Source of the DNA: Candidatus Levyibacteriota bacterium
GTDB lineage: Bacteria; Patescibacteriota; Microgenomatia; Levybacterales; UBA12049
Assembly: GCA_016214555.1 (NCBI GenBank)
Contig: JACROF010000002.1
Coordinates: 69,416 to 133,415, forward strand
DNA: 64,000 bases
Direction: 5' to 3'
Shown: positions 10,502 to 61,710 of the stretch, piece by piece
Numbering within the stretch: the first letter of the stretch is position 1
Layout: each line of letters starts with the position of its first letter
The notes under the pieces: model-generated
The model's input: only the letters and a program-made list of their open reading frames with translations
Database searches by the model: none
Told to the model about the DNA's origin: nothing
Position numbers and translations under genes: made by a program

Positions 10502-11863
10502 TTATTCAATTGCGCGCAGCATATCTCGTCTCCCAATACCTGTACGGTAGTGCAAATTATCACCCTCAACACTTACATGGGAAATACTAGCATACGCCTG
10601 TGCTCTTGCTTCACCAAGACTTGATCCAGATCCCACCACGTAGAAAAGTCTTCCACCACTAACTCTCCACTCGTCTCCAACTCTTGTCATACCAGCACCT
10701 CTAATAACAGCGCCTTCTTGATATGCATCTTCAAGTCCAAAAATTCTTTTGTTTTTTGCCTTATCATAATTTCCTGGATAACCTCTTGACGCACCAGTTA
10801 CAGCTACTCTATGAAAACGGTCTCTACCAAGCGTCATTCCACCTAAATTCCTAGTGGCAATAGCCATATTGATATCATAATAATTTTGGAGTCCAGGGAC
10901 TATCACTTGAGCTTCGGGGTCTCCTAATCGAGAATTTATCTCAACCACTCTAACATGCGGGTTATTGTCACTATCTCTTGTTACCATCCCGCTTACATAA
11001 ATCACACCCTGGTAGTCAATTCCTTCTCTCATGAGACCCTCCATAAGAGGTTCAACCACTTTGTCATGAGTTAGCCGAGCAATCTGCTCTGACATTAGAT
11101 TTGTGGGACTATTACTCCCCATACTCCCCGTGTTTTCTCCTGCATCGAAGTCGTAGGCTGTTTTGTAATCAACAGCCGTTCCAACCTCCTGGTAGTCACG
11201 ACCATCTGTAAAGATAAAGTGAGAAAATTCATCTCCTGGTGTCCCATCTGCATTTTTCATCCATTCCTCAACGACAATCTTTTGCGCAGCATGCGGATAT
11301 CTCGCTCTTAATTCCGCAAAGCGCTCCAAAACCTGCTCTTTATTCTCAGCGGGCATTGCACCTTTTCCTTCAGCTAAGTACGCTGCTTTAGTGAAATAGG
11401 GGACATCAGGCATGTTTTCTAGAAGCTGCAGCAACTCCTCCTCACTTTCTGCCACTGCATACGCAGGCCCTGGAACAAGTCCTAGGCTTCTCATATATGC
11501 CTTATCCCATTCAAGTTTTCCGGCCATCCTATCTGCGCCTACTACTAATGCGCCCTGACTTCGCAACCTTCCAGCAACATTCCCCGCAATTGCATCGTCC
11601 TGTGCGACATCAATCATGTCAAACTTACCATCTTGGAGCACATCTACAATTGCATCGCTGTTTTTGAGACTGATATTCTTATGAAGAGTCACGGGTATAC
11701 CAAATTCTCTTTCAATATCATATTTTGTGTAATCGTTGCCTGGGACAAGTGTGACATCATTAACTTTGCCGCTTTCTGCCAAAGCGCTGATGATGGCGTG
11801 TCCACGACCACCTCCATCAACCACAGCTACACGACCAGTCTGAGAGAATTCTGTTTTAATCAT
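10502..11863 (-). CDS. purD: phosphoribosylamine--glycine ligase
   Basis: Starts RVAVVDGGGRGHAIISAL, carries an ATP-grasp core and the INSRLGDPE motif. Length 453 aa. Confidence 0.9.
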   Translation of the reverse strand: MIKTEFSQTGRVAVVDGGGRGHAIISALAESGKVNDVTLVPGNDYTKYDIEREFGIPVTLHKNISLKNSDAIVDVLQDGKFDMIDVAQDDAIAGNVAGRLRSQGALVVGADRMAGKLEWDKAYMRSLGLVPGPAYAVAESEEELLQLLENMPDVPYFTKAAYLAEGKGAMPAENKEQVLERFAELRARYPHAAQKIVVEEWMKNADGTPGDEFSHFIFTDGRDYQEVGTAVDYKTAYDFDAGENTGSMGSNSPTNLMSEQIARLTHDKVVEPLMEGLMREGIDYQGVIYVSGMVTRDSDNNPHVRVVEINSRLGDPEAQVIVPGLQNYYDINMAIATRNLGGMTLGRDRFHRVAVTGASRGYPGNYDKAKNKRIFGLEDAYQEGAVIRGAGMTRVGDEWRVSGGRLFYVVGSGSSLGEARAQAYASISHVSVEGDNLHYRTGIGRRDMLRAIE

Positions 11864-20126: not shown

Positions 20127-20287
20127 GTTTGTTATGGGTAATACGCCGGCCGTCAACGGAGGCGAGGTGTTGAAGACATAATTGTCTTAACATATCAGGA
20201 AGTTTCCCTAGAAGTGCGACTCATACAATAATTTATGAATACTACCTGCCTGGTATCGTATACTTTATTATACTGTAAAAATCGCCA

Positions 20288-20327
20288 CCCCTTACATCCA
20301 AGGTTGGAAGGATGTGAGGGGTTTTTT
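20288..20327 (+). terminator. intrinsic terminator-like hairpin + U tract (leader terminator 1)
   Basis: ccccttacatcc ... ggatgtgagggg (11/12 bp) followed by tttttg. Confidence 0.5.
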
Positions 20328-20383: not shown

Positions 20384-20420
20384 TATTAAAAGTACCCTAC
20401 CTATGAAAGGAGGTGAATGT

Positions 20421-21509
20421 ATGAAAAAATTTTTAACACTTTTTTTTACCCTTACACTTTTTGTTCTAGTCAAACCAACCTTCGCAGATACTGTAAACGT
20501 TAATTTTGAGAACCCACCATATAATCTTGGGGTCATTAATGCCCAAGACGGGTGGAGCAGTCTAGGATCAGCAGGATCAGGATGCGCAGTATATGATCAC
20601 GCTGTAAATAGTGCTCTAGGAACAACAGGATTTGGATCACAATCTCTTCGTATCTCAAATGCTATAACAAGCGGGTGTTTTGGAGATCAAACATTCTCAA
20701 AGTCACTCATAAATGAAGCAGGTGAATCATCAGCTGTAAACAATGGTTTGTCTGGCGGGACAAGACAGACACATTTTGAAGGCTCGTTTGACCTATCCTC
20801 CACAGTACCTGGGGCAGAACAACCTGGACTGTTTATGTCTGTTTCACCAGATAGAGGAGATGGAGCCCGTATGAGTTACCTTAAGCTCGAAGATCAAGCT
20901 GACGGAGTTCATGTTTTTTTCGATGACTATGTAGACGCAGCTCCTCTTGGAGGACCTGTTGGCGACAGTAATGGATGCAGTGCCGAGGATGATTTTGTTG
21001 AAAGTGATGTCGCTACACTCAGTCGCGCACCACATTCAATCAAATTTAGTATGGACTTCGTTGATGGCCCAAGAAACGACGTTGTAAAAATCTATATTGA
21101 TGGTACTTTAGTCCATACTGGAACAAGCTGGGAGGATTACTTTAGATATTGTGAATCAAACCCAACTAGACCCGTTGATAGTATTTTGTTTAGAACAGGA
21201 GGAGGAGGCTTGCCAAGTGCCCCTGCAACAGCTGGAAATGGATTCTTAGTTGACAACCTTTCACTTCGCTCTGGTCCATCAACAGTGAAAGTAATTCTTG
21301 ACAAATATATTGATGGGGTGATGGCTACATCTGTCACTGCAAATAGTTCCGCATTCCCAATGAACGCAACATGGAGCGCAGATAATATCGGCGCAGGAAG
21401 TGGATCATACAACTTGAGTACAGTAGGATTTAATAGCCCAAATCCCTATGAGGCTGTTACATCCGATATGACCTTTGGTGCTGATTACACTACAAATGAA
21501 GTCACCTGA
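20421..21509 (+). CDS. secreted protein, N-terminal part of an RTX-repeat protein interrupted by in-frame TGA
   Basis: GAAAGGAGGTGAAT RBS, then signal peptide MKKFLTLFFTLTLFVLVKPTFA. The stop TGA at 21507-21509 is followed in the same frame by 34 sense codons and then the RTX-repeat ORF. Confidence 0.6.
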   Translation: MKKFLTLFFTLTLFVLVKPTFADTVNVNFENPPYNLGVINAQDGWSSLGSAGSGCAVYDHAVNSALGTTGFGSQSLRISNAITSGCFGDQTFSKSLINEAGESSAVNNGLSGGTRQTHFEGSFDLSSTVPGAEQPGLFMSVSPDRGDGARMSYLKLEDQADGVHVFFDDYVDAAPLGGPVGDSNGCSAEDDFVESDVATLSRAPHSIKFSMDFVDGPRNDVVKIYIDGTLVHTGTSWEDYFRYCESNPTRPVDSILFRTGGGGLPSAPATAGNGFLVDNLSLRSGPSTVKVILDKYIDGVMATSVTANSSAFPMNATWSADNIGAGSGSYNLSTVGFNSPNPYEAVTSDMTFGADYTTNEVT

Positions 21510-21611
21510 GGTCCAGTAGTTGGAGCAACATGCTCAACTGGTCAACCATTTGCACTTGTTGGTTATACGACAGGAGACACGCTGTCTGCTGCTGAGGGAG
21601 CAACACCAACG

Positions 21612-22157
21612 GTGGCTGTTCCAAACTTCACTGACCTTGAGTCAAACAAGTATGTAATCGTCTGGAATCAGACATGCCCACCACCTGACCCATATGCAGT
21701 ACCAGCAGAGTGCGTAGCAACAGGCTTTACGTATGGCGCACCTATTGTTGGCACAGGAGGCAATAACTCTATCAATGGAACTGGCGGAAATGATCTCATA
21801 TTTGGACTTGGTGGCAACGATAAAATTGATGGAAGAGGTGGTAACGACTGTATCGTTGGAGGAGATGGAAATGACAAGCTATCTGGAGGCACAGGTCTAG
21901 ATGTGTTGCTTGGAGGCATTGGAAATGACGCACTTAGTGGAGACAGCGGCAATGATGTCCTCTATGGCAATGAAGACAATGACAGTCTCAAAGGCGGGTC
22001 AGACAATGACAGGCTTTACGGTGGCACTGGAAATGACGCTCTAGATGGAGGAAGCGATGACGACATCCTCAATGGAGAAGCAAATAGTGATGCTGCTAAA
22101 GGAGGATCTGGAATTGACGCATGTACTGCTGAATCAGTTAAGCAGTGCGAGGTCTAA
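21612..22157 (+). CDS. RTX calcium-binding nonapeptide-repeat domain (C-terminal part of the interrupted gene; same frame as 20421..21509)
   Basis: Tandem GGxGxDxL-type repeats (GTGGNDLIFGLGGNDKIDGRGGNDCIVGGDGNDKL...). The C-terminus CTAESVKQCEV is homologous to the C-terminus of the 24126..25073 protein. The track start is GTG. The frame is open back to 21510. Confidence 0.6.
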   Translation: MAVPNFTDLESNKYVIVWNQTCPPPDPYAVPAECVATGFTYGAPIVGTGGNNSINGTGGNDLIFGLGGNDKIDGRGGNDCIVGGDGNDKLSGGTGLDVLLGGIGNDALSGDSGNDVLYGNEDNDSLKGGSDNDRLYGGTGNDALDGGSDDDILNGEANSDAAKGGSGIDACTAESVKQCEV

Positions 22158-22167
22158 TGGTAATTTG

Positions 22168-22197
22168 TAGTAGTCAATCTTACCCTTGACTACTACC
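22168..22197 (+). terminator. perfect 11-bp hairpin downstream of RTX gene (no U tract)
   Basis: gtagtagtcaa-tcttaccc-ttgactactac. Confidence 0.3.
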
Positions 22198-22242
22198 TAA
22201 TACTTACTTAGAAAACAAATAAAGAAAGGAGGTGAATCACAC

Positions 22243-22827
22243 ATGATCAACCGAAAAATTGCATTAAGTAGTATGTCTATCTTCGCATCTCTTGCGCTGA
22301 TGGGCGGTGCTACTTTCGCATTCTTCAGCGACTCAGCAACAAGTACTGGAAATTCATTTGCAGCAGGAAGTTTTGATCTTAAGATTGGAACCTCAGCTCC
22401 AGCAGCATCTGATTCAATAGGAGCAGTATTTGCAAGCGCAAACATGATCCCAGGTGCAACTCCCGAAACAGCAACAATATTTTTACGAAACACTGGAACA
22501 GTGGCAGGCAACAAGGCTTACTTAAAAATAGAGAACGTTGGGGGAATTGACAACAACGCCAATCAGCCCACTCCAATGACTCGACAAGTTGATATTACTG
22601 TCTCATTAGACGGCACGCCCGTTCTCATTCCAGATACAAATGGGAATGCAAGGCAAGACCTTGAAGACCTTCAGCTATCAGGTAATGGTCTTCAAATTGG
22701 TACTATAACTGACACCGGAGTAGACCATACTTTAGTTGTTACAGCAGGATTAAATTCTGGCGCTGGCAACGAGTATCAAGGAGACTCAGTCACAGCAGAC
22801 TTGAGAGCAACTCTTACTCAAGACTAA
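22243..22827 (+). CDS. TasA/camelysin-family (peptidase M73-like) secreted protein with SipW-cognate signal
   Basis: N-terminus GGATFAFFSDSATSTGNSFAAGSFDL matches the TasA motif AAFND..ATFASGTLDL. This is followed by beta-rich IPGATPE / FLRNTGTV segments. The GAAAGGAGGTGAAT RBS precedes it. Confidence 0.65.
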   Translation: MINRKIALSSMSIFASLALMGGATFAFFSDSATSTGNSFAAGSFDLKIGTSAPAASDSIGAVFASANMIPGATPETATIFLRNTGTVAGNKAYLKIENVGGIDNNANQPTPMTRQVDITVSLDGTPVLIPDTNGNARQDLEDLQLSGNGLQIGTITDTGVDHTLVVTAGLNSGAGNEYQGDSVTADLRATLTQD

Positions 22828-22889
22828 TTCAGGCAGGTGGTGGGGGAGCGTATACACCCCCACTACCTCTGAGGAAAGGATAAGTACGT

Positions 22890-23495
22890 ATGAAAAATAA
22901 ATTGAAAAAAATTAGCAATCACAAGGTTGCAAAACACACCAAGACTGTATTGAAGTGGAAATTTAGTGTGATTTCATTTATATTTCTGCCTCTAGCTATT
23001 TTCACCCTTCTTACAGCCAAAACGACAATAATTCCAACAATCCAATCATTTGTCGTACTAACAGGTAGCATGAAACCCACCCTACCAATTGGCGCTGTTG
23101 TTTACACCCAAAAAGGAAGCGCCATACAAAAAGGTGATGTCATCACTTTCTCAAATAACAAAGGGCAAATTATCACACACCGTGTTGTAGATATTAAAAA
23201 AGCAACGAGCGGACTATCCTACCAAACAAAAGGAGACGCCAACAACACCACAGACCAATCTCTTGTCCCTTCAACCAGTATCAAAGGGAAAGTTCTTTTT
23301 TCACTGCCATACCTTGGTTATCTTATTAATGCTTTAAGAAGTCCTGTTGGGTTTCTGATGTTTGTTATCTTGCCAATTTTGATTTTTATTGCGCTTGAGC
23401 TATGGAATATCAAAGGAGAGATTGAAAAATCAATTGAGAGAAAGCTGAGGCAAGAATTAAGTATCAAAAAATATGAAAAAATTGATATTTCTTAA
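22890..23495 (+). CDS. sipW: signal peptidase I, SipW-type (S26B)
   Basis: N-terminal TM, the VVLTGSMKPTL catalytic-Ser box, GDVITF and ITHRVVDI boxes, and a C-terminal TM. This is the archaeal/SipW-like architecture. Confidence 0.7.
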   Translation: MKNKLKKISNHKVAKHTKTVLKWKFSVISFIFLPLAIFTLLTAKTTIIPTIQSFVVLTGSMKPTLPIGAVVYTQKGSAIQKGDVITFSNNKGQIITHRVVDIKKATSGLSYQTKGDANNTTDQSLVPSTSIKGKVLFSLPYLGYLINALRSPVGFLMFVILPILIFIALELWNIKGEIEKSIERKLRQELSIKKYEKIDIS

Positions 23496-24129
23496 TCTTA
23501 TTACGATGACTGTTTTGTTTGGATTATCATATTCGGTAACACGTGCATTATTTGCTGATAGTGCTACAAGCACCAGCAATTCTTTTACAGCAGCAGCCGA
23601 ATTTCCATCACCTACTCCTACACCAAGTTCATCAGTAGGATCAGTGGTCATCAACGAGCTCATGTGGTCGGGCAGCACAAATACAGATGATGAATGGCTT
23701 GAGCTTCGCAACATGACAAGCTCACCAATTGATCTTACTAACTGGAAATTGGAAGGAAACACTACTCTCACAATCGCATCAGGGACTATTCCAGCAAATG
23801 GTTATTTCCTAGTATCACACTTTGCTGAGACTGATGAAAATTCAATTCTCGGCATCACGCCAGATATCGTTTCTCCATCCGTTCAACTTAATAACACAAA
23901 TCTACAATTAACTTTACGAGATGCTTCTAGCAATATAGTTGACCAAGCAGATGATGCAATTAACCCTCCCTTTGCTGGGAGCAACACTACTCCTAAAAAG
24001 TCAATGGAAAGAAACCTTGTGCCTGGAGATGGAACTGTGTCATCAAACTGGCATACAGCATCTACACAACTTAATCTTGACAGCGGAGCACTCGAGTCTG
24101 CTACTCCAAAAGGAGCAAATAGCTTATGA
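23473..24129 (+). CDS. lamin-tail-domain (LTD) protein with SipW-cognate signal peptide
   Basis: N-terminus TRALFADSATSTSNSFTA, then a Pro/Thr linker, then VVINELMWSGSTNTDDEWLELRNMTSSPIDLTNWKL (the LTD signature). Confidence 0.6.
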   Translation: MKKLIFLNLITMTVLFGLSYSVTRALFADSATSTSNSFTAAAEFPSPTPTPSSSVGSVVINELMWSGSTNTDDEWLELRNMTSSPIDLTNWKLEGNTTLTIASGTIPANGYFLVSHFAETDENSILGITPDIVSPSVQLNNTNLQLTLRDASSNIVDQADDAINPPFAGSNTTPKKSMERNLVPGDGTVSSNWHTASTQLNLDSGALESATPKGANSL

Positions 24130-25073
24130 GAATTTTAAAGAATAAATTGATTCACGTTGGCATACTATTAATTGCAGTGACCCTTATTGCTTTTCATACT
24201 CATGCTATTCAGAAAATTTTCTGGCCGGAAAGAGTCGAAGCGGTTGGGGATCTGACCATTAACTGGGGAATTGGCACTGGCAATGTAGGGCCTATCTTTA
24301 CTCTCAACGATATGGCCCCAGGCCAATCTGAGCAAAAAACGGTAAGCGTTAGCAATGGAAGCCTCAATCCGCTCACCATTAGCGTAAGAGGAGTAAAAGC
24401 TTTAGAGACTGCAAGCCTAGCTAATGTAATGAACATTGCCATTTCCCACAATGGTGTGGATCTATATGGAGGTTCTAGTCCTACTGGATTTAAAACATTG
24501 GCAGACTTTTTTTCAGATAGCTCAAACATCCTGGGAATCTCACTTAAAACACAGAGCCCAAACACAACAGAAAATTATCAATTTACCATAACTTTTAACG
24601 AATCTGCAGGCAACACATACCAAAACGCATCACTATCTTTTGATATTCATATGGGAATAGCTATTGACATCCCAATTGCTTGCCAATCAATTAATTTTGG
24701 CACTCATGAGCCAATTATTGGATCTAAGAAAAGCGAGAAACTAACTGGTACAGCTCAAAATGACCTGATACTTGGAATGGGTGGCAGTGACAAAATTGAT
24801 GGCAAAGGAGGCCATGACTGCATTCTGGGTGGAGACGGTAGTGACTCAATTACAGGAGACACCGGCGATGATGTCCTAGTAGGTGAGGGCGGAAGCGATA
24901 CTATTCGAGCAGGAAGTGGAAACGACACCATTACTGGAGGCAACGGAGCAGATAGCATGTACGGAGACGCAGATAATGACACAATTGTTGGAGATGGTGG
25001 ATCAGACAAAGCGGTTGGTGGAACAGGGACTGATACTTGCAGCGCAGAATCAAAATCACAGTGTGAATTATAA
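24126..25073 (+). CDS. TasA-like domain fused to C-terminal RTX calcium-binding repeats
   Basis: N-terminal anchor, then FTLNDMAPGQSEQKTVSVSNGSLNPLTISV (TasA-like beta-sandwich). The C-terminal 100 aa are GGxGxD repeats ending CSAESKSQCEL. Confidence 0.6.
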   Translation: MRILKNKLIHVGILLIAVTLIAFHTHAIQKIFWPERVEAVGDLTINWGIGTGNVGPIFTLNDMAPGQSEQKTVSVSNGSLNPLTISVRGVKALETASLANVMNIAISHNGVDLYGGSSPTGFKTLADFFSDSSNILGISLKTQSPNTTENYQFTITFNESAGNTYQNASLSFDIHMGIAIDIPIACQSINFGTHEPIIGSKKSEKLTGTAQNDLILGMGGSDKIDGKGGHDCILGGDGSDSITGDTGDDVLVGEGGSDTIRAGSGNDTITGGNGADSMYGDADNDTIVGDGGSDKAVGGTGTDTCSAESKSQCEL

Positions 25074-25143
25074 AAAGATCTTTTCACTTCATGGGTAGAG
25101 ATTTCCTAAACATGAAGTATCAAATATCTTTTTTTGAAAGGAG

Positions 25144-25761
25144 GTGAATACAAAAATGACAAATCTAAAAACAAAAATTACAACCGGTCTCGTGACTGCT
25201 GGTATTATTGCCAATTTTGTTGCTCCAGCAGCTTTTGCGGATACAGATGTTACTGTTAAAGAAAACGGCGATAGTTCAACTAACAAAGTTAAGGTTAAGA
25301 ACAAACACGTCGTCAAGGTTAAGCAAAAAAACACAACAAATATAACAAATTCTGTTGGCTTGACTCAAAGCACTGGCGGTAACAACGCCAAGAAAAATAC
25401 CGGTGGCGATGTCACCCTTACAAGCGGGGACGCTACAGCTAATGTAACCATCGACAACACAACAGATGGCAATACAGCTACAGTTGATGGGTGTGGCTGC
25501 GCTGGTGGAGACACAACAGTAAATGTTGAAGGCAATGGAGCCGACTCAACAAATAAAGTTAAAGTCTCCAACGTTAATGTCACAAAGGCTACTCAAAAGA
25601 ACACAACAACTGTGATCAACGGAGTAAGTATTGGACAGACAACGGGTGGCAATTCAGCAAATAGCAACACAGGTGGATCAGTTGATGTTACATCTGGTGA
25701 TGCTGATGCTACTGTAGGCATTGCCAACTCAGTTGGTGAAAACTCTTTAACTATTAACTAA
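25144..25761 (+). CDS. secreted Asn/Thr/Gly-rich repeat protein (2 modules), novel repeat family
   Basis: GAAAGGAGGTGAAT RBS and a signal peptide. Two ~85 aa modules have the form V.V..NG..S.N.V.V.N...V...Q.N.T.I.N.V...Q.TGGN.A..NTGG.V..TSGDA.A.V.I.N, separated by VDGCGCAGG. Confidence 0.6.
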   Translation: MNTKMTNLKTKITTGLVTAGIIANFVAPAAFADTDVTVKENGDSSTNKVKVKNKHVVKVKQKNTTNITNSVGLTQSTGGNNAKKNTGGDVTLTSGDATANVTIDNTTDGNTATVDGCGCAGGDTTVNVEGNGADSTNKVKVSNVNVTKATQKNTTTVINGVSIGQTTGGNSANSNTGGSVDVTSGDADATVGIANSVGENSLTIN

Positions 25762-25791
25762 TAGTTTGAGTAAATCTTCTAGAAGGACAAG

Positions 25792-25828
25792 GCCCTGCCC
25801 AGGCTGACGAGCCCAGGCAGGGTTTTTG
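25792..25828 (+). terminator. intrinsic terminator
   Basis: ccctgcc ... ggcaggg (7 bp perfect) followed by ttttt. Confidence 0.6.
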
Positions 25829-25877
25829 TTGAGAAAACTCTTACACAAAATATACAAATATGGTATAAACTATAGGT

Positions 25878-26309
25878 ATGCGATTTATCCTCCTTTTCCT
25901 CTCAATTCTTTCCTTTATTGGACTTAAAAAAACTTTTGCCGAGACAAATGTTGTAGTAAAGTCAAATGGTGGTTCAAGTCACGTAAATGTTGTTTCTAAA
26001 ACGAGCTCAGGCGACAGCACAACCTCAGAGAGTCATGTAACAATTGAGAACAATGGGGAAGTTAAGACCTTTGATGTTACAGGGGATGAGTCAATTGATT
26101 GGACCTCAGATGATGGCAAATCTACAGTCAAAATTAACGCTCAGACAATTACGCCATCACCCAAAGCCTCCATGTCACCAACAGTTACAAAAAATGAGGA
26201 ATCAAAATCCACAGTGTCTTTGAGTCAAGACCAACCCAAAAAGTCAGTTTCTCTTTATGAGCTTGTTAAGAAAGTACTTCAGGACATCTTTTCCTCTTTT
26301 GGTAGATAA
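25878..26309 (+). CDS. short secreted paralog of the repeat family (1 partial module)
   Basis: Signal peptide, then VVVKSNGGSSHVNVVSK..., the same opening as the module. Confidence 0.45.
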   Translation: MRFILLFLSILSFIGLKKTFAETNVVVKSNGGSSHVNVVSKTSSGDSTTSESHVTIENNGEVKTFDVTGDESIDWTSDDGKSTVKINAQTITPSPKASMSPTVTKNEESKSTVSLSQDQPKKSVSLYELVKKVLQDIFSSFGR

Positions 26310-26450
26310 ACCATATTTGTCTTACTTGACAAACAGCGCAATATTTTTCAAACTATATATGTGGCTAGTAAATCTGTCAAAAAAACATCGCAAAAAAGCC
26401 GTCTTGAAAACCCTGTTCACAACTTGATAGGATATGGGGCACTTCTTGTC

Positions 26451-27080
26451 TTATCTTTTGTCGTTCTTGCTATTGTCTACAGTCTCCAGTGGTACATCAT
26501 TCCCTGATTCCTTCGCAAAAATCAAAAGCCTTTTCCAATCAGTCCCAATAGGTGTGCAGGTTTGTAGTATAAGAACATCATCTTTTCTCTGAGTAACTTC
26601 ATTAACTTGCCTTGGGCTGACCTCTTTTTTATCAACAACAGCATAGTGGTACTCTTTACTTTGCTTCCACACAACAATACTATCTCCTTTTTCAAGCTCT
26701 CCCAATCGAAGAAAGATGCTATTGTATCTTGTAAGTTCCCAAGGTGAGCTAGATGAGTGTGCAAAAAGATATATTGGTCCACTTTCTCCTGGCAGGGCAA
26801 ATCCCTTTGCGTGTGCAATTCCTTTTTTTAAAGCAGGTATGTATTCATTTTTATTCCAGGGATCAACTTGTGCAATGATATTGCCTGAAGCACGTATTTT
26901 TGGAATCCAAATTGAAAATTCTCTTTCATATACCGAGGGCATTGATGTAGGGAAAAAGTATGCGTGGAATACGGGAAAAAATATATATAAAAATCCTAAA
27001 AAAGACAACAATACTAAGCCATTCCCAATTCCTCTTACAAGTCTATTTTTCATCTGAGTATTGTAGCTAATTCGACTCAC
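26451..27080 (-). CDS. sortase-family transpeptidase
   Basis: N-terminal TM, His box LFAHSS, the TLxTC-like LILQTCTP motif with the catalytic Cys, and an Arg in TDWKRLLIF. Confidence 0.65.
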   Translation of the reverse strand: MSRISYNTQMKNRLVRGIGNGLVLLSFLGFLYIFFPVFHAYFFPTSMPSVYEREFSIWIPKIRASGNIIAQVDPWNKNEYIPALKKGIAHAKGFALPGESGPIYLFAHSSSSPWELTRYNSIFLRLGELEKGDSIVVWKQSKEYHYAVVDKKEVSPRQVNEVTQRKDDVLILQTCTPIGTDWKRLLIFAKESGNDVPLETVDNSKNDKR

Positions 27081-27085
27081 AAGGT

Positions 27086-27116
27086 CAAAAAAAATCCCCT
27101 TGCGGGGATGTTTTTA
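27086..27116 (-). terminator. bidirectional intrinsic terminator (A-run, atcccc-ttgc-ggggat, T-run)
   Basis: Hairpin flanked by A7 and T5. It lies immediately downstream of the 27114..28250 minus-strand gene. Confidence 0.6.
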
Positions 27117-28250
27117 GATTGCAAATGCACCAGGAGACCTGCCGGATCTCAGTCTTAACAGCACACCGAAAAATAACATCAAGAGATTTCCAAGAATGGC
27201 AAGTAATATCCAAGGATTTCCTGTTGCTGGCAACACCTCGCCTGTTGTTGTACCGAGTACAGAATTAGATGTCCCACCACCATTTCCACCTGATGATGGA
27301 GGGTTACCACCATTTCCTGAAGGTGGAGGTGGGGGAGGAGGATTGCATCCATCTCCTTCACATGGTGGTGGAGGAGGTGGTTCTTTGCATCCACAATCCA
27401 CAGTAACTTCACTCTGATTTGCTTGGTTGTCGACATCGATTGAGACATGAATATCACCAGTTTTTATCGCGACATCTCCATTGTTACCATTTGCGTTATT
27501 ATTCCCAGTGATCAAATTCCAAATGCTGTGATTAAAGATGTCTGAAACATTTGAAATAGCAATCGTAGTGCTGGTGTCTTCTCTTAGAGTTATGGTGTTA
27601 ACACTGCCTTCACCATTTCCTGAAATTTTGATTTGAAATCCACCGTTTCCACCTGTTAAAGCGTTAACAATTGCGAGATTTGTTTTATTTTTGATGCTTT
27701 CTTCTACAGTAATATTTCCTGTTGTGATTGCTACATTTCCGTTGTTATTGTTAGCGTTATTGTTACCTGTAATAGCTGTTCCAGATATGTTATTTGTGAT
27801 AGTTGCTTGCTGATTAATACTTATTGCGCTTGTAGTAATACTTGTATAACCAACAGTGTTTATGGAGTTAGCGCCATTTCCAGAAATGATAGCCTGACTG
27901 TCATGATTGTCGCAACATGCACCAGCTGTTATGTCACTATTATTCATACTGTTAGCGATGGTTGTGTCTGTACTGATATTTCCCGTGGTAACAGCGGTAT
28001 CTCCTCCAGTATTGTTACTTGCTGAATTGTCTCCTGTGTTAGCCAAGACATTTACATCATTGTTAACCTCAGCATTATTTTCCTGAGAAACATGTACATC
28101 ATGGGACTGACTTATAGATACATCACTCGAAGATCCATCGCCATTACCAGTAATTGTCAGCGTCTCTGCATGAGCAGTACTCACTGCAAAAGGCAGGAGA
28201 GTCGCACTAAAAACGGTCAAAATAATTTTATCTTTTTTCATCACTAACAT
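27114..28250 (-). CDS. secreted repeat-family protein with PPPPPP linker and C-terminal LPATG sorting signal
   Basis: Signal peptide, repeat modules (NTGGDTAVTTGN..., AGACCDNHD) and two Pro-rich runs. The C-terminus has VLPATG, a hydrophobic stretch and RLRSGR, the classic sortase substrate signature. Confidence 0.65.
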   Translation of the reverse strand: MLVMKKDKIILTVFSATLLPFAVSTAHAETLTITGNGDGSSSDVSISQSHDVHVSQENNAEVNNDVNVLANTGDNSASNNTGGDTAVTTGNISTDTTIANSMNNSDITAGACCDNHDSQAIISGNGANSINTVGYTSITTSAISINQQATITNNISGTAITGNNNANNNNGNVAITTGNITVEESIKNKTNLAIVNALTGGNGGFQIKISGNGEGSVNTITLREDTSTTIAISNVSDIFNHSIWNLITGNNNANGNNGDVAIKTGDIHVSIDVDNQANQSEVTVDCGCKEPPPPPPCEGDGCNPPPPPPPSGNGGNPPSSGGNGGGTSNSVLGTTTGEVLPATGNPWILLAILGNLLMLFFGVLLRLRSGRSPGAFAI

Positions 28251-28290: not shown

Positions 28291-30534
28291 CTAGACTAAT
28301 TTGCGGGCAAGTAATTTTTTCCTTTTCACAATAATTATTCCAACAATTGGTAGCACAAGTAGTAGCCATGCAAGATTGATGCTCATAGCTCCTTTTGCTG
28401 TATCTGCTCCAAGAACTGATGTATCAAGACTCGCACCTTTGACCAAAGAGCTATTTTCATCCTCAGTACTACCAGATCCAACAGATCCTGCACTTGCATG
28501 TGATCCTCCTGATGTTACCTCAGTTGTACCATTGCTATTACTTTTAGTAGATGAGCCTGTTGACTTTGTATTTGATGACTGGTTGCTGGATTTATTCGAG
28601 CCGTTATCATCGTCATGACTGTCTGTTGTGTTACTTGCAGCACTTTCAGTATGAGTATCAAGAGCTGTCTTCTCCTCTTTCTTCTGACCAGGAGAGACAA
28701 AATCTCCAAGCCAAGTTCCAAATACATTAACAACGGTGACAAAAACTTTTCCATTTCCTTTAATATTGTTGTTAACAAAATTGATCATGTTAGCTACGAT
28801 TGTAGCGTCTCCTGTTTTAATATTTGAGTTGCCACCAGTATTGTCACTTGTTGCATTGTTGCCAGTATTTGCAGACAAATTAAGAGTATTATTGATGTCT
28901 GCATTGTTGGTTTGATTTGTAGTATTAGTATTTGTTGTCGATACAGCTGTATCGTTGGTACTATTGGTTCCATTTTTGTTATTTTTTGCTGTGACGTATC
29001 CATTTTCATCGACTTCGAAGTCTGATCCCTCTGATCCTGCAAAGAACGCGTCATCTGGAGCACCCATGATTTTCCCAATCCATCCCTTTGTAACATCATT
29101 AACTAACACAATCCACCAATTTCCACCGACAATATTGTTGTTGGCTATATTAAGGAGATTGACATCAATCGTTGTGTCACCAGTGCTGATTGAAGAATCT
29201 CCGCCTGTGTTTCGACTGGCTGTGTTGTCTCCAGTATTAGCATCAAAGACAAGGTCATTTGTGATATCTGCTGTGTTTGATTGAAACGTATTATCAGTAT
29301 CAACGATGTCTATGTCTGAAGTGTTGGTACTATTACTTCCGTTGCCTGTATTGGTAGCTGCGACATTTCCTCCGCAGCACGCATTCAACTGATCCTCAGG
29401 AAATATGATATCTCCAATAAAATAAAAAAAAATGTTGACAATGCCATAGATGACATTCCCAGCTATATTATTGTTAGCAAAGGTTACAATATTTGCTGCA
29501 ACATTCGCATCGCCGGTTGTGATGCTTGAGTCCCCACCGGTATTTCGACTTGCAGTATTATTTCCAGTATCAGCAGACAGTACGAGATCATTTCCAATTT
29601 GAGCATCGTTTTCTTGTGTTGTTGTAGTTGTATTTGTGGTATCAACACTACCTTGATTGGTTGAATTTGATCCATTTGCCGTATTTGCAACATTTGTTGT
29701 GCCTCCGCATCCTACAATACAGTTGGCAGCAAAATCCAGAACAACATCTCCAATCTGATCATCAAGAACATTAAACTCAGAGACCATTACTCCTTCTGCA
29801 TTCGTATTCACCATAGTAATTACCGTTCCTGTTGAATTTGCATCACCTGTCTTAATGGATGCATCTCCTACATTGTCTGATGCTGTGTTGTCGCCAGTAA
29901 CCGTTGATGAGTTGAGGTTGGTATTTACTGATGCGCTATTTGTTTGAGTCGTATTATTATTGTTGTCAACAACAGCTGAACCACTGTTGGTCGATCCTGT
30001 ACCATTTGCGGTATTTGCAACTACAGCACCACTACCACCTGAACCTGCTCCGACTCCAGCGAGGTTGTTGTTGCCACTATTCACAACGCTTGTCGTACTT
30101 GCAGCATCGCCTGTATCTATTTCAATATCACCAACACCATCTGGTGTCGAATCCGAAGTTTGAGAAAGATTTGTTGGAGTTGGGGTAGGGGAAACTCTAT
30201 TTCTTTCAGGTGGAGTAATGCCCTGACTGATCAAATAAGCATCAACTTGATCTTGAATTTCCTTCTGAAGCTGCTCTCTGTATAGTCTTGCTGCCTTGTC
30301 TGTTTCATCCTCAACATAAGGAGTTGGAGTGGGGGTAGGAGTTGCCTGCTCTTGAGTTGGAGTAGGCTCAGTTGTTTGAGATGCCTCCTGAGTCTGCTCG
30401 CCTGGCGTCGTTTGTTCTGTTGTTGTACTACCTTGATCTACTACTTCGTCAGCATACACAGCCGGTGCGACCTGTGTCGCAACTTGTATAGTCAAGAGTG
30501 TGATTACTAATAATTTTTTAATTATATTTGTCAT
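28291..30534 (-). CDS. large secreted repeat-family protein (747 aa, 4 modules) with C-terminal TM anchor
   Basis: Signal peptide, PT-rich linker, four modules (NTASRNTGGDSSITTGDANVAANIV...), CC/CGG spacers (NACCGG, CIVGCGG), and a C-terminal hydrophobic segment plus a KRKK tail. Confidence 0.65.
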   Translation of the reverse strand: MTNIIKKLLVITLLTIQVATQVAPAVYADEVVDQGSTTTEQTTPGEQTQEASQTTEPTPTQEQATPTPTPTPYVEDETDKAARLYREQLQKEIQDQVDAYLISQGITPPERNRVSPTPTPTNLSQTSDSTPDGVGDIEIDTGDAASTTSVVNSGNNNLAGVGAGSGGSGAVVANTANGTGSTNSGSAVVDNNNNTTQTNSASVNTNLNSSTVTGDNTASDNVGDASIKTGDANSTGTVITMVNTNAEGVMVSEFNVLDDQIGDVVLDFAANCIVGCGGTTNVANTANGSNSTNQGSVDTTNTTTTTQENDAQIGNDLVLSADTGNNTASRNTGGDSSITTGDANVAANIVTFANNNIAGNVIYGIVNIFFYFIGDIIFPEDQLNACCGGNVAATNTGNGSNSTNTSDIDIVDTDNTFQSNTADITNDLVFDANTGDNTASRNTGGDSSISTGDTTIDVNLLNIANNNIVGGNWWIVLVNDVTKGWIGKIMGAPDDAFFAGSEGSDFEVDENGYVTAKNNKNGTNSTNDTAVSTTNTNTTNQTNNADINNTLNLSANTGNNATSDNTGGNSNIKTGDATIVANMINFVNNNIKGNGKVFVTVVNVFGTWLGDFVSPGQKKEEKTALDTHTESAASNTTDSHDDDNGSNKSSNQSSNTKSTGSSTKSNSNGTTEVTSGGSHASAGSVGSGSTEDENSSLVKGASLDTSVLGADTAKGAMSINLAWLLLVLPIVGIIIVKRKKLLARKLV

Positions 30535-36665: not shown

Positions 36666-37190
36666 CTATTTTTTAGACTTTATGTATGTTTCCAGTGCTT
36701 TCACATGAGATGGAAATGCCATCTCGGCACCAAGCACGTCACTTTTTGAAAAAAATTGATAGCCTCCTACATCATCTCCAGCATTGAATGAGCTAATATC
36801 TGTCTTTGCACACCCATAGAGACAGAGTACAGGCACATTTATTCCTTGATACAAATAATCATCAGCAAAAGCATAAAGAAGCGTTATTTCTCTCAATTCA
36901 ATCCCTAACTCTTCTTTAACCTCTCTTGTTGTTGAAGCTACAAAATCCTCGTTTGGCTTGATAAATCCTCCAGGAAAATCCCAATACCCTTTCATCGGAT
37001 CAAATTTTCTCTTAACGAGCAAAATTTCACCCTTATCATTTTCAATAATAAGGGCATTTGACGGTGCTGGATTGAGGTAAAACACAAAGCGGCAATTGGT
37101 ACACTGCAAAGCAAAGTCAGTTGAGAGAAAAGGATTTTGGTATCTCTCTCCGCACTTTGGACAATATGCGTATGCTTCTTCAGGCTTCAT
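36666..37190 (-). CDS. NUDIX hydrolase with N-terminal zinc ribbon
   Basis: CPKCGERY...CTNCRF, then the Nudix box GGFIKPNEDFVASTTREVKEELGI. Confidence 0.75.
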   Translation of the reverse strand: MKPEEAYAYCPKCGERYQNPFLSTDFALQCTNCRFVFYLNPAPSNALIIENDKGEILLVKRKFDPMKGYWDFPGGFIKPNEDFVASTTREVKEELGIELREITLLYAFADDYLYQGINVPVLCLYGCAKTDISSFNAGDDVGGYQFFSKSDVLGAEMAFPSHVKALETYIKSKK

Positions 37191-38104
37191 TATACTTTTG
37201 ACGTGAGACTAAATTTGGCTAAACGGTACTGCTTAAGACACCAAATACCAAATAAAATGCACCCTGTGACAATGCTTGGGTAACGATTTTTGAGTCTTTT
37301 ATTGTAAAAAATCTTCATTGCATCGCTTCCCGCAACAATTACTTTTTTCTTTGTCTCTTTGTTAACCACAACTTTTTCACCTGACTTTTGCACTTTTCCT
37401 TTTGTCGCTCCTTTATAGTGATTAATGGTAATTGATGGCACATACATGATCTTATAACCTGCTTCCTTTATTTTCCAACAAAGATCGATATCTTCACCGT
37501 TGAGGAAATAATCCTCGTCATACCACTCGATCTTATCCATCACTTCACGCCTGACAAGACAATATGCCCCCTCTAATACATCAACTTCTGACTCAATCTC
37601 AGGCGAAAGATAACCATACCAATACCTTGCAAACAACCGAGAAGTTGGAAATAGCCTGTCAAGCATTGTCATATGGGTAAATGCGACCCAAGGAGTAGGG
37701 AAAGACCGCCTTGCATCCTTGTCCAAAGACCCATCATGCATAACAATCTTACATGTCATAGCGCCAACATCTGGATGTTCTTTCATGTAATCAAGAGAGA
37801 GAGGCAATGAGTCTTCTTCAACCTGTGTATCAGGATTAAGCATCAATATATAGTCTCCCTTACAGAGATGCCTGACGATGTTATTACCCTTTGCAAATCC
37901 TACATTGTCATTTTTTTGATAGAGCACGCTTGGGAAATCTTTTTTAATCATCTCACCTGTATCATCTGAACCATTATCAGAGACTATCACCTGCATCGAA
38001 TAACCAGCTTTTTTGAGTGGAGGTTCAGCTTTTTTGAGTGAGGAAATACATGCAGCAACAAAATCCCTCGTGTTGTATGCAACAATAATGATTGAAAGCG
38101 TCAT
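37190..38104 (-). CDS. family 2 glycosyltransferase
   Basis: LSIIIVAYNTRDF...VIVSDNGSDDT...NPDT. Confidence 0.8.
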   Translation of the reverse strand: MTLSIIIVAYNTRDFVAACISSLKKAEPPLKKAGYSMQVIVSDNGSDDTGEMIKKDFPSVLYQKNDNVGFAKGNNIVRHLCKGDYILMLNPDTQVEEDSLPLSLDYMKEHPDVGAMTCKIVMHDGSLDKDARRSFPTPWVAFTHMTMLDRLFPTSRLFARYWYGYLSPEIESEVDVLEGAYCLVRREVMDKIEWYDEDYFLNGEDIDLCWKIKEAGYKIMYVPSITINHYKGATKGKVQKSGEKVVVNKETKKKVIVAGSDAMKIFYNKRLKNRYPSIVTGCILFGIWCLKQYRLAKFSLTSKV

Positions 38105-50442: not shown

Positions 50443-51480
50443 ATGTTTAAAACGAGATTTCTCGTTTTAGTCGCAATTTTGGCGCTTTCTGCGCCAAGAC
50501 TAGCCTTCGCTGGAAACTACATCGACAACGCAGCAAGTGTCTTGAAGAACTCAGGAGCCTATGTGGTTCCTGGTACGGAAGGCACGGATAGCTCAACTGT
50601 CCTCAAACTGCAGTCAGTATTAACCGATGGCGACAAAATCGCATTGGTTATGCTTCCAGCATCTGCCGAAGATGAGCTTGGCATGGATATCAATACCATT
50701 GCAGCAACACTTTCTGATAAGCTTGGCAACAAGCGCATTATCGGACTCTCAGTTGGCAATATGGTACTTGAGTACGCGCCGACCCTGCCATCAGGTGTCG
50801 CCAGTGATCAAATGAGGCGTGCAAAAAACGTCTCAAACAACAACCCTGTCACTATCTTGATTACTTACGCACAGAACATCCGCGATTGGCAAAAAGCTCA
50901 TCCAGAGCCACAGACATCACCGCTTGACCCAACAGGGGAGGGTGGTATGTCCTGGGCCGTGTGGATCAGCACTGGGTTTATAGTTTTGCTCGCTGTGTCT
51001 TTTCTGTATATCTTCCTTGGCGGTTCAACCGAAGAGGAGGAGCAACAGAAGCTGGCCCGCAGAACGCGCTTCAACGCTCATGACCAGATCAATGATCTTC
51101 TATCAAAAATCGCGGTTCAACGCGATGATATCAAAGACATTGACCTGCAAGCCACCATTACAAAACTTTGCGCGGACGTCGAGAAGTACTTCCAAACATG
51201 TAGCAAGGACAAAATGGCAGATGCCATCACTTTCCAAGGCTACCTGCAGGGGGTAACTTCTGTTCTATCCGACTACATCAAGGTGCAAGGCTCTAAAGAC
51301 AATTACCGCAAACCTGCTGATATTTTGCAGCGCGGAAAATCGTCTATTATCAGCTTTGCAGACTACGTTCGAGATGCGGTCATTCGTGGCCATGAAGCGG
51401 ATCTTCTTGACTTCAACATCAATACAAAGATTCTCGAAGCTCAAGGATACCGCTCAGGGCAAGAAAGGAGAAGTATGTAG
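50443..51480 (+). CDS. membrane protein (signal peptide, central TM helix, cytoplasmic C-terminal domain), hypothetical
   Basis: GC-richer than the flanking DNA. Topology inferred from hydrophobic segments. Confidence 0.5.
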   Translation: MFKTRFLVLVAILALSAPRLAFAGNYIDNAASVLKNSGAYVVPGTEGTDSSTVLKLQSVLTDGDKIALVMLPASAEDELGMDINTIAATLSDKLGNKRIIGLSVGNMVLEYAPTLPSGVASDQMRRAKNVSNNNPVTILITYAQNIRDWQKAHPEPQTSPLDPTGEGGMSWAVWISTGFIVLLAVSFLYIFLGGSTEEEEQQKLARRTRFNAHDQINDLLSKIAVQRDDIKDIDLQATITKLCADVEKYFQTCSKDKMADAITFQGYLQGVTSVLSDYIKVQGSKDNYRKPADILQRGKSSIISFADYVRDAVIRGHEADLLDFNINTKILEAQGYRSGQERRSM

Positions 51481-61308: not shown

Positions 61309-61710
61309 ATGAGAAAGTTACTACTGCTCTCAACTTTCTTTTCGATTACACCTCTTTTCCTTGTCGTTCTTCTGACATCGCTTGTTTTTGTCACCAAAAA
61401 TGCAGATCGAAAAGAGATAGCAAATGCAAAAAAAACCAAAGTAGCTTTCGCTGCACTTCCAACCGCACAAAATGTCTTTGAAGATACTATAAAAGCATCT
61501 GATGCCCGCGTAGAAATACTTACGCAGTTTTTTTTTTTTTTTTTTGACAACTATCCACAGGCTATAGCGACCATCTCCAAAACCCTTGCTGAAAAATATC
61601 GTGATGCAAATGGCCTAGTAACACCCGATCAAATTCAAAAAATGTACACACCTTCTAGTAATGGCTCATGGGCAAACGGTGTAAATCACTTTATTGAAGT
61701 ACTTCAGTAA
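61309..61710 (+). CDS. small secreted protein containing a (T)18 tract encoding Phe6
   Basis: Signal peptide MRKLLLLSTFFSITPLFLVVLLTSLVFV. The homopolymer at 61528-61545 lies in frame. Confidence 0.45.
   Translation: MRKLLLLSTFFSITPLFLVVLLTSLVFVTKNADRKEIANAKKTKVAFAALPTAQNVFEDTIKASDARVEILTQFFFFFFDNYPQAIATISKTLAEKYRDANGLVTPDQIQKMYTPSSNGSWANGVNHFIEVLQ
61528..61545 (+). repeat. homopolymeric T18 tract
   Basis: Read directly from the sequence. Both the plus-strand ORF (FFFFFF) and an antisense ORF (KKKKK) cross it. Confidence 0.9.

Follow-up and report, generated by a model that had tools for sequence, protein, structure and literature searches.

The stretch analysed here, referred to as the window, comprises 64,000 nucleotides of a Candidatus Levybacteria metagenome-assembled genome (MAG), and its + strand carries at 20421-22157 a gene that is interrupted by a stop codon. 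An ATG at 20421 opens an open reading frame (ORF) of 362 codons, ended by a TGA at 21507-21509, past which the same frame runs on for 215 sense codons to a TAA at 22155-22157 with no further stop. These coordinates and the continuation confirm what a first-pass annotation of the stretch had described, namely a single in-frame TGA in a frame otherwise open to 22157. The 362-residue product corresponds to the NCBI protein MBI5044396.1 (HZC02_00540), encoded on a contig of 232,526 bp. Compared with an independent assembly of the same population (the Logan assembly of run SRR12113407) and with related genes, the stop does not appear to be a real feature: an artefact of the deposited Candidatus Levybacteria MAG is its most likely origin, and a segregating nonsense allele is the most that it could be. 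The features of the gene are the following.

20405-20418, + strand: Shine-Dalgarno (SD) sequence GAAAGGAGGTGAAT, strong, preceding the ATG at 20421 and the sole such site for the frame 20421-22157
20421-20489, + strand: Sec-type signal peptide (MKKFLTLFFTLTLFVLVKPTFA/D), read from the translation and present in the N-terminal piece only, with the putative cleavage site placed by eye
20490-21275, + strand: N-terminal beta-sandwich (jelly-roll), residues ~24-285, with a predicted concanavalin A-like / L-type lectin fold
21276-21677, + strand: middle beta-sandwich module STVKV...VIVWNQTC, residues 286-419, interrupted by the stop codon
21507-21509, + strand: in-frame TGA, codon 363 of the frame; the window has T at base 21507 where the Logan assembly has G (GGA, Gly)
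21510-22157, + strand: the same gene continued, comprising the remainder of the middle module, a Pro-rich linker, the RTX beta-roll, a Cys...Cys-Glu-Val motif at the terminus and the TAA
21612-21614, + strand: GTG, the first in-frame start past the TGA, with a weak SD-like GAGGGAG 11 nt upstream
~21744-22130, + strand: RTX beta-roll, identified from Pfam, PDB relatives and an AlphaFold model
22160-22203, + strand: inverted repeat with 18-nt arms and an 8-nt loop, forming a hairpin just past the TAA, at the end of the whole gene

Of all TGA triplets in the six frames of the window, only that at 21507-21509 is flanked by at least 100 stop-free codons on both sides, so the continuity of the frame across it is not due to chance. 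The 14-mer GAAAGGAGGTGAAT recurs identically at 22224-22237, before the next gene, whereas no SD comparable to it or to those of the neighbouring genes was found before the C-terminal part, which has no credible restart site. The hairpin at 22160-22203 was not called by a simple terminator scan because it lacks a T-run, and the repeat scan detected no element like it after the TGA. If the RTX part were translated from an internal start as a gene of its own, the GTG at 21612 with its weak SD-like sequence would be the site available. The resulting product would have 181 residues, would lack a signal peptide and would begin inside a beta-sandwich domain, and it was not found in a collection of 15 billion proteins.

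The read-through sequence retrieved 1,651 relatives at E <= 0.001 in a protein search, mostly from the candidate phyla radiation (CPR) and some from other phyla. The closest full-length relatives (P0002, P0006, P0007, P0008, P0012 and P0018, of 566-593 residues) carry both halves in a single polypeptide, as do the positional orthologues, with 566-590 residues, and in alignment A1 the column of the stop is Gly in most sequences, inside the motif NEVTGGPVVGA. P0002 is encoded on the Logan contig L001 by a single ORF of 566 residues with GGT at the stop site. The gene order on this contig is that of the window (BacA, RND adaptor, AcrB-like protein, a gene of 185 residues, the gene under study, a TasA/camelysin-like protein and an S26 signal peptidase), and P0002 can thus be taken as a positional orthologue; the orthologue on contig L002 also has GGT at the site. 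A scan of GTDB representative genomes, among which the MAG itself is absent, yielded 75 loci, the closest being ~70% identical, and 23 homologous modules covering the site were examined from the fetched loci. A sense codon was present in 22 of them, a gap in one and a stop in none, the residue being Gly, Ser, Asn, Asp, Thr, Leu or Pro, and never Cys.

When the gene was compared with that on L001, the ratio of non-synonymous to synonymous substitution rates (dN/dS) was 0.13 upstream of the stop and 0.05 downstream, with amino-acid identities of 72% and 79%, respectively, and neither a second stop nor a frameshift was found downstream of the TGA. As the downstream part is undecayed, the stop must be either very recent or not real. 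Relatives with the N-terminal domain alone (e.g. on L004, with 354 residues) finish in a Cys-rich tail of their own and are not followed by an RTX gene, and in every relative examined there was one gene and not two. The comparison shows the two halves to be one gene, in agreement with the first-pass annotation. The internal-restart model was consequently rejected, given the weak GTG as its sole start, a product absent from the protein collection and the lack of any split relative, and we consider it very improbable.

The earlier case for a single gene had been based on the protein encoded at 24126-25073, regarded as an intact paralogue whose C-terminus is collinear with the C-terminal domain. 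The likeness holds for the C-terminal RTX region (42% identity over 152 residues, E 1e-36), but the N-terminal parts of the two proteins are unrelated, which weakens that argument; with the RTX tail alone in common, the 24126-25073 protein is a paralogue of one domain and not of the whole gene.

The sequence of the intact gene was found in the same population. The 90%-identity cluster of the 362-residue product includes P0121, a protein of 578 residues from the Logan assembly of run SRR12113407, which equals the read-through translation of the window exactly, with Gly at residue 363. The corresponding contig (SRR12113407_996, L077) aligned with positions 10421-31153 of the window over 20,733 bases at 99.971% identity, without gaps and with six mismatches, one of which places a G (position 11087 of the contig) opposite the T at 21507, giving GGA (Gly) instead of TGA. 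A wider comparison, which took in four Logan contigs from that run (L077-L081) and 48,479 shared bases, detected eight mismatches in four places, as listed below.

21507: window T, Logan G; Gly to stop
29404: window T, Logan G; synonymous (Ile)
29421: window A, Logan G; belongs to an FGDL to FFYF change
29424, 29426 and 29427: window A, Logan C; belong to the same FGDL to FFYF change
38047: window T, Logan G; Leu to Ile in codon 20 of the minus-strand gene 37190-38104
51435: window C, Logan T; synonymous, in the gene 50443-51480

Six of these eight are G:C to T:A changes, and seven place a T on one or other strand in the window. The 362-residue product was seen in the NCBI record alone and never in the Logan assemblies. 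Exact-product look-ups of P0001 and of its TasA-like neighbour gave no match, so that no second assembly with the T was found by this route, and a search of JGI metagenome contigs with a 39-base pattern, in which the variable base was set to N, gave no match either. Therefore, an intact allele exists, and of the assemblies found only the deposited MAG has the stop.

The nature of the difference also bears on a phase-variable switch, driven by a repeat or an invertible element, which had been among the explanations offered at first. The change at 21507 is an in-frame substitution in unique sequence and not a frameshift, and the repeat scan revealed no simple-sequence, direct or inverted repeats at this position and no flanking inverted repeats or invertible element. 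Phase variation was rejected on these grounds and is, like the two-gene arrangement, highly improbable.

The stop is not the only private anomaly of the deposited contig, as aberrant states that are absent from the independent assembly were observed at other positions too. The first is a 24-bp cluster of five differences at 29404-29427, in the minus-strand gene 28291-30534, which encodes a repeat surface protein of 747 residues rich in Asn, Thr and Gly. There, the sequence NIFGDLIGDII of the Logan assembly reads NIFFYFIGDII in the window, and a run of nine A arises in the window from the cluster (29404-29432). The Logan form is identical in the homologue on L050 (Levybacteria RIFCSPHIGHO2_02_FULL_40_18), and it fits the motif F-G-x-[LWF]-x-G-[DN] shared by the paralogous repeats.

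The second anomaly affects the gene 61309-61710 (+ strand), which contains a run of 18 T at 61528-61545. At this junction the window has 8 bp where the Logan contig L081 (positions 1121-1302) has 182 bp of coding sequence, i.e. 174 bp less, with the loss of 58 codons in frame and the generation of the sequence QFFFFFFDN. The protein encoded on L081, of 191 residues, has 2,576 homologues; among the best 120 of these, the majority have 190-196 residues (about 191-193) and cover 100% of the query, whereas the version of the window (P0152, HZC02_00820), with 133 residues, covers 39% of it only. Sequence searches of Pfam, NCBIfam and the PDB assigned the 191-residue protein to no family. The poly-T junction looks like a local misassembly of the MAG. 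The window contains two A/T homopolymers of at least 9 nt, located exactly at these two places. Thus, the deposited MAG holds the aberrant, T/A-enriched state at all three places whose ancestral state can be deduced.

Taken together, the disagreement with an independent assembly, its direction away from the conserved Gly state and the presence of further anomalies of the same type on the contig (the FFYF/A9 cluster and the T18 junction) favour an artefact of the deposited consensus as the origin of the stop, to which we assign a probability of about 0.62; that the T is an error rather than a minority allele is what we infer from the comparison. According to this interpretation, the TGA would stem from a conserved Gly codon (GGA) by a single G-to-T difference in its first position, confined to the deposited MAG, and the T at 21507 would be a non-representative consensus base, introduced by sequencing or assembly and of the same T-biased kind as elsewhere on the contig. 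The organism would then most likely make the full-length protein, with no recoding mechanism involved. G-to-T miscalls and T-rich artefacts are known error modes of Illumina sequencing or of oxidative damage. The situation resembles other base errors and misassemblies of draft MAGs in its single-base departure from an independent assembly of the same population and in the accompanying anomalies (A9 cluster and 18-T junction), all of which break conserved protein features, and differs from them in that the T may here be a real minority allele picked by the assembler.

Several considerations weigh against an artefact. The comparison is one of assembled sequences, and the T at 21507 may have the support of reads. 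As a rule, a k-mer must occur at least twice before a de Bruijn assembler emits it, and unsupported k-mers are rarely invented, so that the T was probably present in some reads, which would suit a real minority allele as well. The MAG and the Logan contig may come from different samples, in which case the difference could reflect true strain variation; furthermore, the mismatch at 51435 is a synonymous transition of the ordinary kind, which makes it likely that the two assemblies differ by some real polymorphism. The MAG, whose BioProject is probably PRJNA640378, may originate from the groundwater study of He et al. (2021; PMC7906910), in which each filter was assembled separately with MEGAHIT and IDBA-UD scaffolding, as the series of its locus tags and the naming of L014 suggest; the run SRR12113407 was not found in the searched text and supplements of that study.

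These same points give some room to a real nonsense allele that segregates in the groundwater Levybacteria population or is fixed in one of its sub-lineages; we regard this as possible but clearly less probable than an artefact. It would lead to a truncated secreted protein of 362 residues, with the lectin domain and a broken middle module but no RTX tail, and would mean that a surface adhesin had lost its function very recently. The T does stand in the deposited consensus, and the assemblies differ by the synonymous change at 51435 and the conservative Ile/Leu exchange at 38047, as real strains would. Relatives with the N-terminal domain alone occur naturally, as on L004, so the loss of the tail need not be lethal, and the undecayed downstream part suits a very recent event. 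In contrast, the same population holds an intact allele, on a contig identical at 99.97%, and the truncated product is restricted to the NCBI record; the stop splits a domain midway, whereas the natural short relatives finish in their own conserved Cys-rich tail; and the other private states of the contig are grossly aberrant and T-biased, pointing to data quality rather than to biology.

With respect to recent nonsense pseudogenes and segregating alleles of surface proteins, the gene shares the in-frame stop, the intact orthologues and the perfect downstream frame, and it differs in the intact allele of the same population and in the lack of any sign that the stop is fixed or common. A fixed nonsense pseudogene was rejected: the stop is premature relative to the orthologues, but the assembly identical at 99.97% is intact, and the downstream part, with its dN/dS of 0.05, has no further lesions.

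Programmed recoding of the UGA, be it by readthrough, by selenocysteine insertion or by decoding as Gly, would also give a full-length protein. In its favour, the stop aligns exactly with a conserved Gly and the downstream frame is wholly intact. Genetic code 25, in which UGA stands for Gly, occurs in certain CPR bacteria (Gracilibacteria/Absconditabacteria), and the present case resembles theirs in that a CPR bacterium has UGA where its relatives have Gly. The difference is that TGA is a normal stop here and no other such in-frame TGA is present in the window. The window has a G+C content of 40.7% and conforms to the standard code, with TGA ending 9 of its 57 long ORFs. Its long genes lack internal TGA codons, among them that of the AcrB-like protein, with 1,115 residues, which itself ends in TGA at a length equal to that of its orthologue. 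Codes 25 and 4 were rejected on the basis of the normal use of TGA as a terminator and of the single internal TGA revealed by the six-frame scan. No recoding is known from the Levybacteria (Microgenomates) lineage.

Further evidence against recoding came from the transfer RNAs and from the RNA around the stop. The window encodes 11 tRNAs, among which there is neither one that reads UGA (anticodon UCA) nor a selenocysteine tRNA. The RNA of 21495-21620 folded with a z-score of -0.85, 34 of 200 shuffled sequences folding as well as it did; thus, the mRNA structure that had been proposed as a check downstream of the TGA does not exceed the shuffled expectation. An Rfam search gave no relevant match at the site even at E up to 10. 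The stop itself is not conserved, its place being taken in homologues by Gly, Ser, Asn or Asp, and never by Cys or a stop, and the codon is GGT in the closest orthologues and GGA in the same population, from which TGA is one step away. Readthrough and selenocysteine insertion were hence rejected in view of the absent structure, the absent Rfam match, Gly and not Cys in the relatives, and the lack of a fitting tRNA in the window. We judge recoding of any of these kinds to be very unlikely, and even jointly with phase variation and a true two-gene arrangement its chances are slight. A variant in which the T allele is real and is tolerated because UGA is partly decoded as Gly, by near-cognate reading or by a minor tRNA, is barely conceivable; if true, it would place a lineage with the standard code at an early step towards the reassignment seen in Gracilibacteria/Absconditabacteria. 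Therefore, of the four options put forward in the first-pass annotation, a sequencing or assembly error and a recent nonsense mutation are favoured, given the GGA codon and the intact ORF of 578 residues in the Logan assembly, whereas programmed readthrough and phase variation are not.

The gene belongs, without special distinction, to a large family of secreted lectin-RTX surface proteins, and the interruption carries little biological weight. The case nevertheless calls for caution, since a lone in-frame stop in a draft MAG can mimic recoding, above all in the CPR, where codes with UGA as Gly exist, and it can be quickly resolved by comparison with an independent assembly. The deposited contig probably contains at least three local defects, which would have resulted in wrong records for HZC02_00540 (362 residues), HZC02_00820 (133 residues) and the FFYF segment of the 747-residue protein.

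The stretch 20421-22157 is one gene for a secreted protein of 578 residues, in which a signal peptide is followed by a concanavalin A-like lectin domain, a beta-sandwich module and, towards the C-terminus, a Ca-binding RTX beta-roll. The hydrophobic N-terminus is kept in all homologues of alignment A1. The RTX nonapeptide repeats (GGxGxD) matched the Pfam family HemolysinCabind (PF00353) with an E value of 7e-30 and 103 bits against a cut-off of 23, and a search with the family profile reached RTX relatives in the PDB down to E 5.5e-28. No Pfam or NCBIfam family matched the N-terminal domain, sequence searches recognising the RTX part only, and the scores of the NCBIfam RTX-toxin models for the protein were far under their cut-offs.

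The AlphaFold model of the orthologue P0002, with a mean predicted local distance difference test (pLDDT) score of 89, comprises the signal peptide, a jelly-roll (residues 23-273), a second beta-sandwich (279-406) and an RTX beta-roll (438-557). In Foldseek searches against the PDB, its N-terminal domain matched YwfG, the lectin module of SraP, legume lectins, Emp46p/47p and GH16 glucanases (E 4e-6 to 1e-3). The stop corresponds to residue 351 of P0002, which in the model lies past the fifth of eight strands in the middle domain, and so not at a domain border.

The predicted N-terminal jelly-roll thus matches the lectin modules of the L-type lectin adhesins YwfG (Lactococcus) and SraP (Staphylococcus), although it has no family match at the sequence level and any sugar binding would be putative. 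In turn, the C-terminal beta-roll is related to the RTX blocks of CyaA and lipases, but in contrast to RTX toxins and adhesins secreted by the type I pathway, the protein has an N-terminal Sec signal in place of a C-terminal type I signal, and no genes of a type I secretion system are adjacent, the neighbours being those of an RND pump and of TasA-like, SipW-like, lamin-tail-domain and sortase proteins. Membership among the type I-secreted RTX toxins and adhesins was rejected on both counts. The product, which probably leaves the cell by the Sec route, would be a Ca-stabilised protein of the cell surface or the extracellular space that has a lectin-like head, and an adhesin-like function may be proposed for it.

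Downstream of the gene there is a cluster for surface proteins that spans 22243-28250, with the following genes.

22243-22827: TasA/camelysin-like protein with a SipW-type signal (Peptidase_M73)
22890-23495: SipW-like S26 signal peptidase
23473-24129: lamin-tail-domain (LTD) protein
24126-25073, + strand: second RTX protein, sharing only the C-terminal RTX/Cys tail with the split gene
26451-27080: sortase
27114-28250: protein of 378 residues ending in a sortase-type LPATG motif and a hydrophobic tail

The cluster also holds two small repeat proteins, and its first genes are syntenic in L001. It is plausible that this surface locus constitutes attachment machinery for an episymbiotic CPR bacterium.

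Upstream of the split gene, at 20280-20325, a GC-rich hairpin is followed by a T-run (CCCCTTACATCC...GGATGTGAGGGGTTTTTTG). Missed by the simple terminator scan because its loop has 10 nt, it looks like the intrinsic terminator of the preceding transcription unit.

Regarding the origin of the relatives, the record titles of L002, L004-L006, L013, L020, L022, L038, L043 and L053 name Gammaproteobacteria and, in one case, Bordetella parapertussis. The relatives in these loci are 51-73% identical to the protein of the split gene, and since the closest matches are of CPR affinity, such labels look questionable. The N-terminal lectin-like domain is widespread, being present in MAGs labelled as Acidobacteriota, Chloroflexota, Gemmatimonadota and Actinomycetota besides the CPR. 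Among the relatives on L004-L058 the C-terminal ends are interchangeable, with an RTX beta-roll, a Cys-rich CKNGGW...NQGxCVS tail, extra beta-sandwich modules or beta-helix domains following the N-terminal part.

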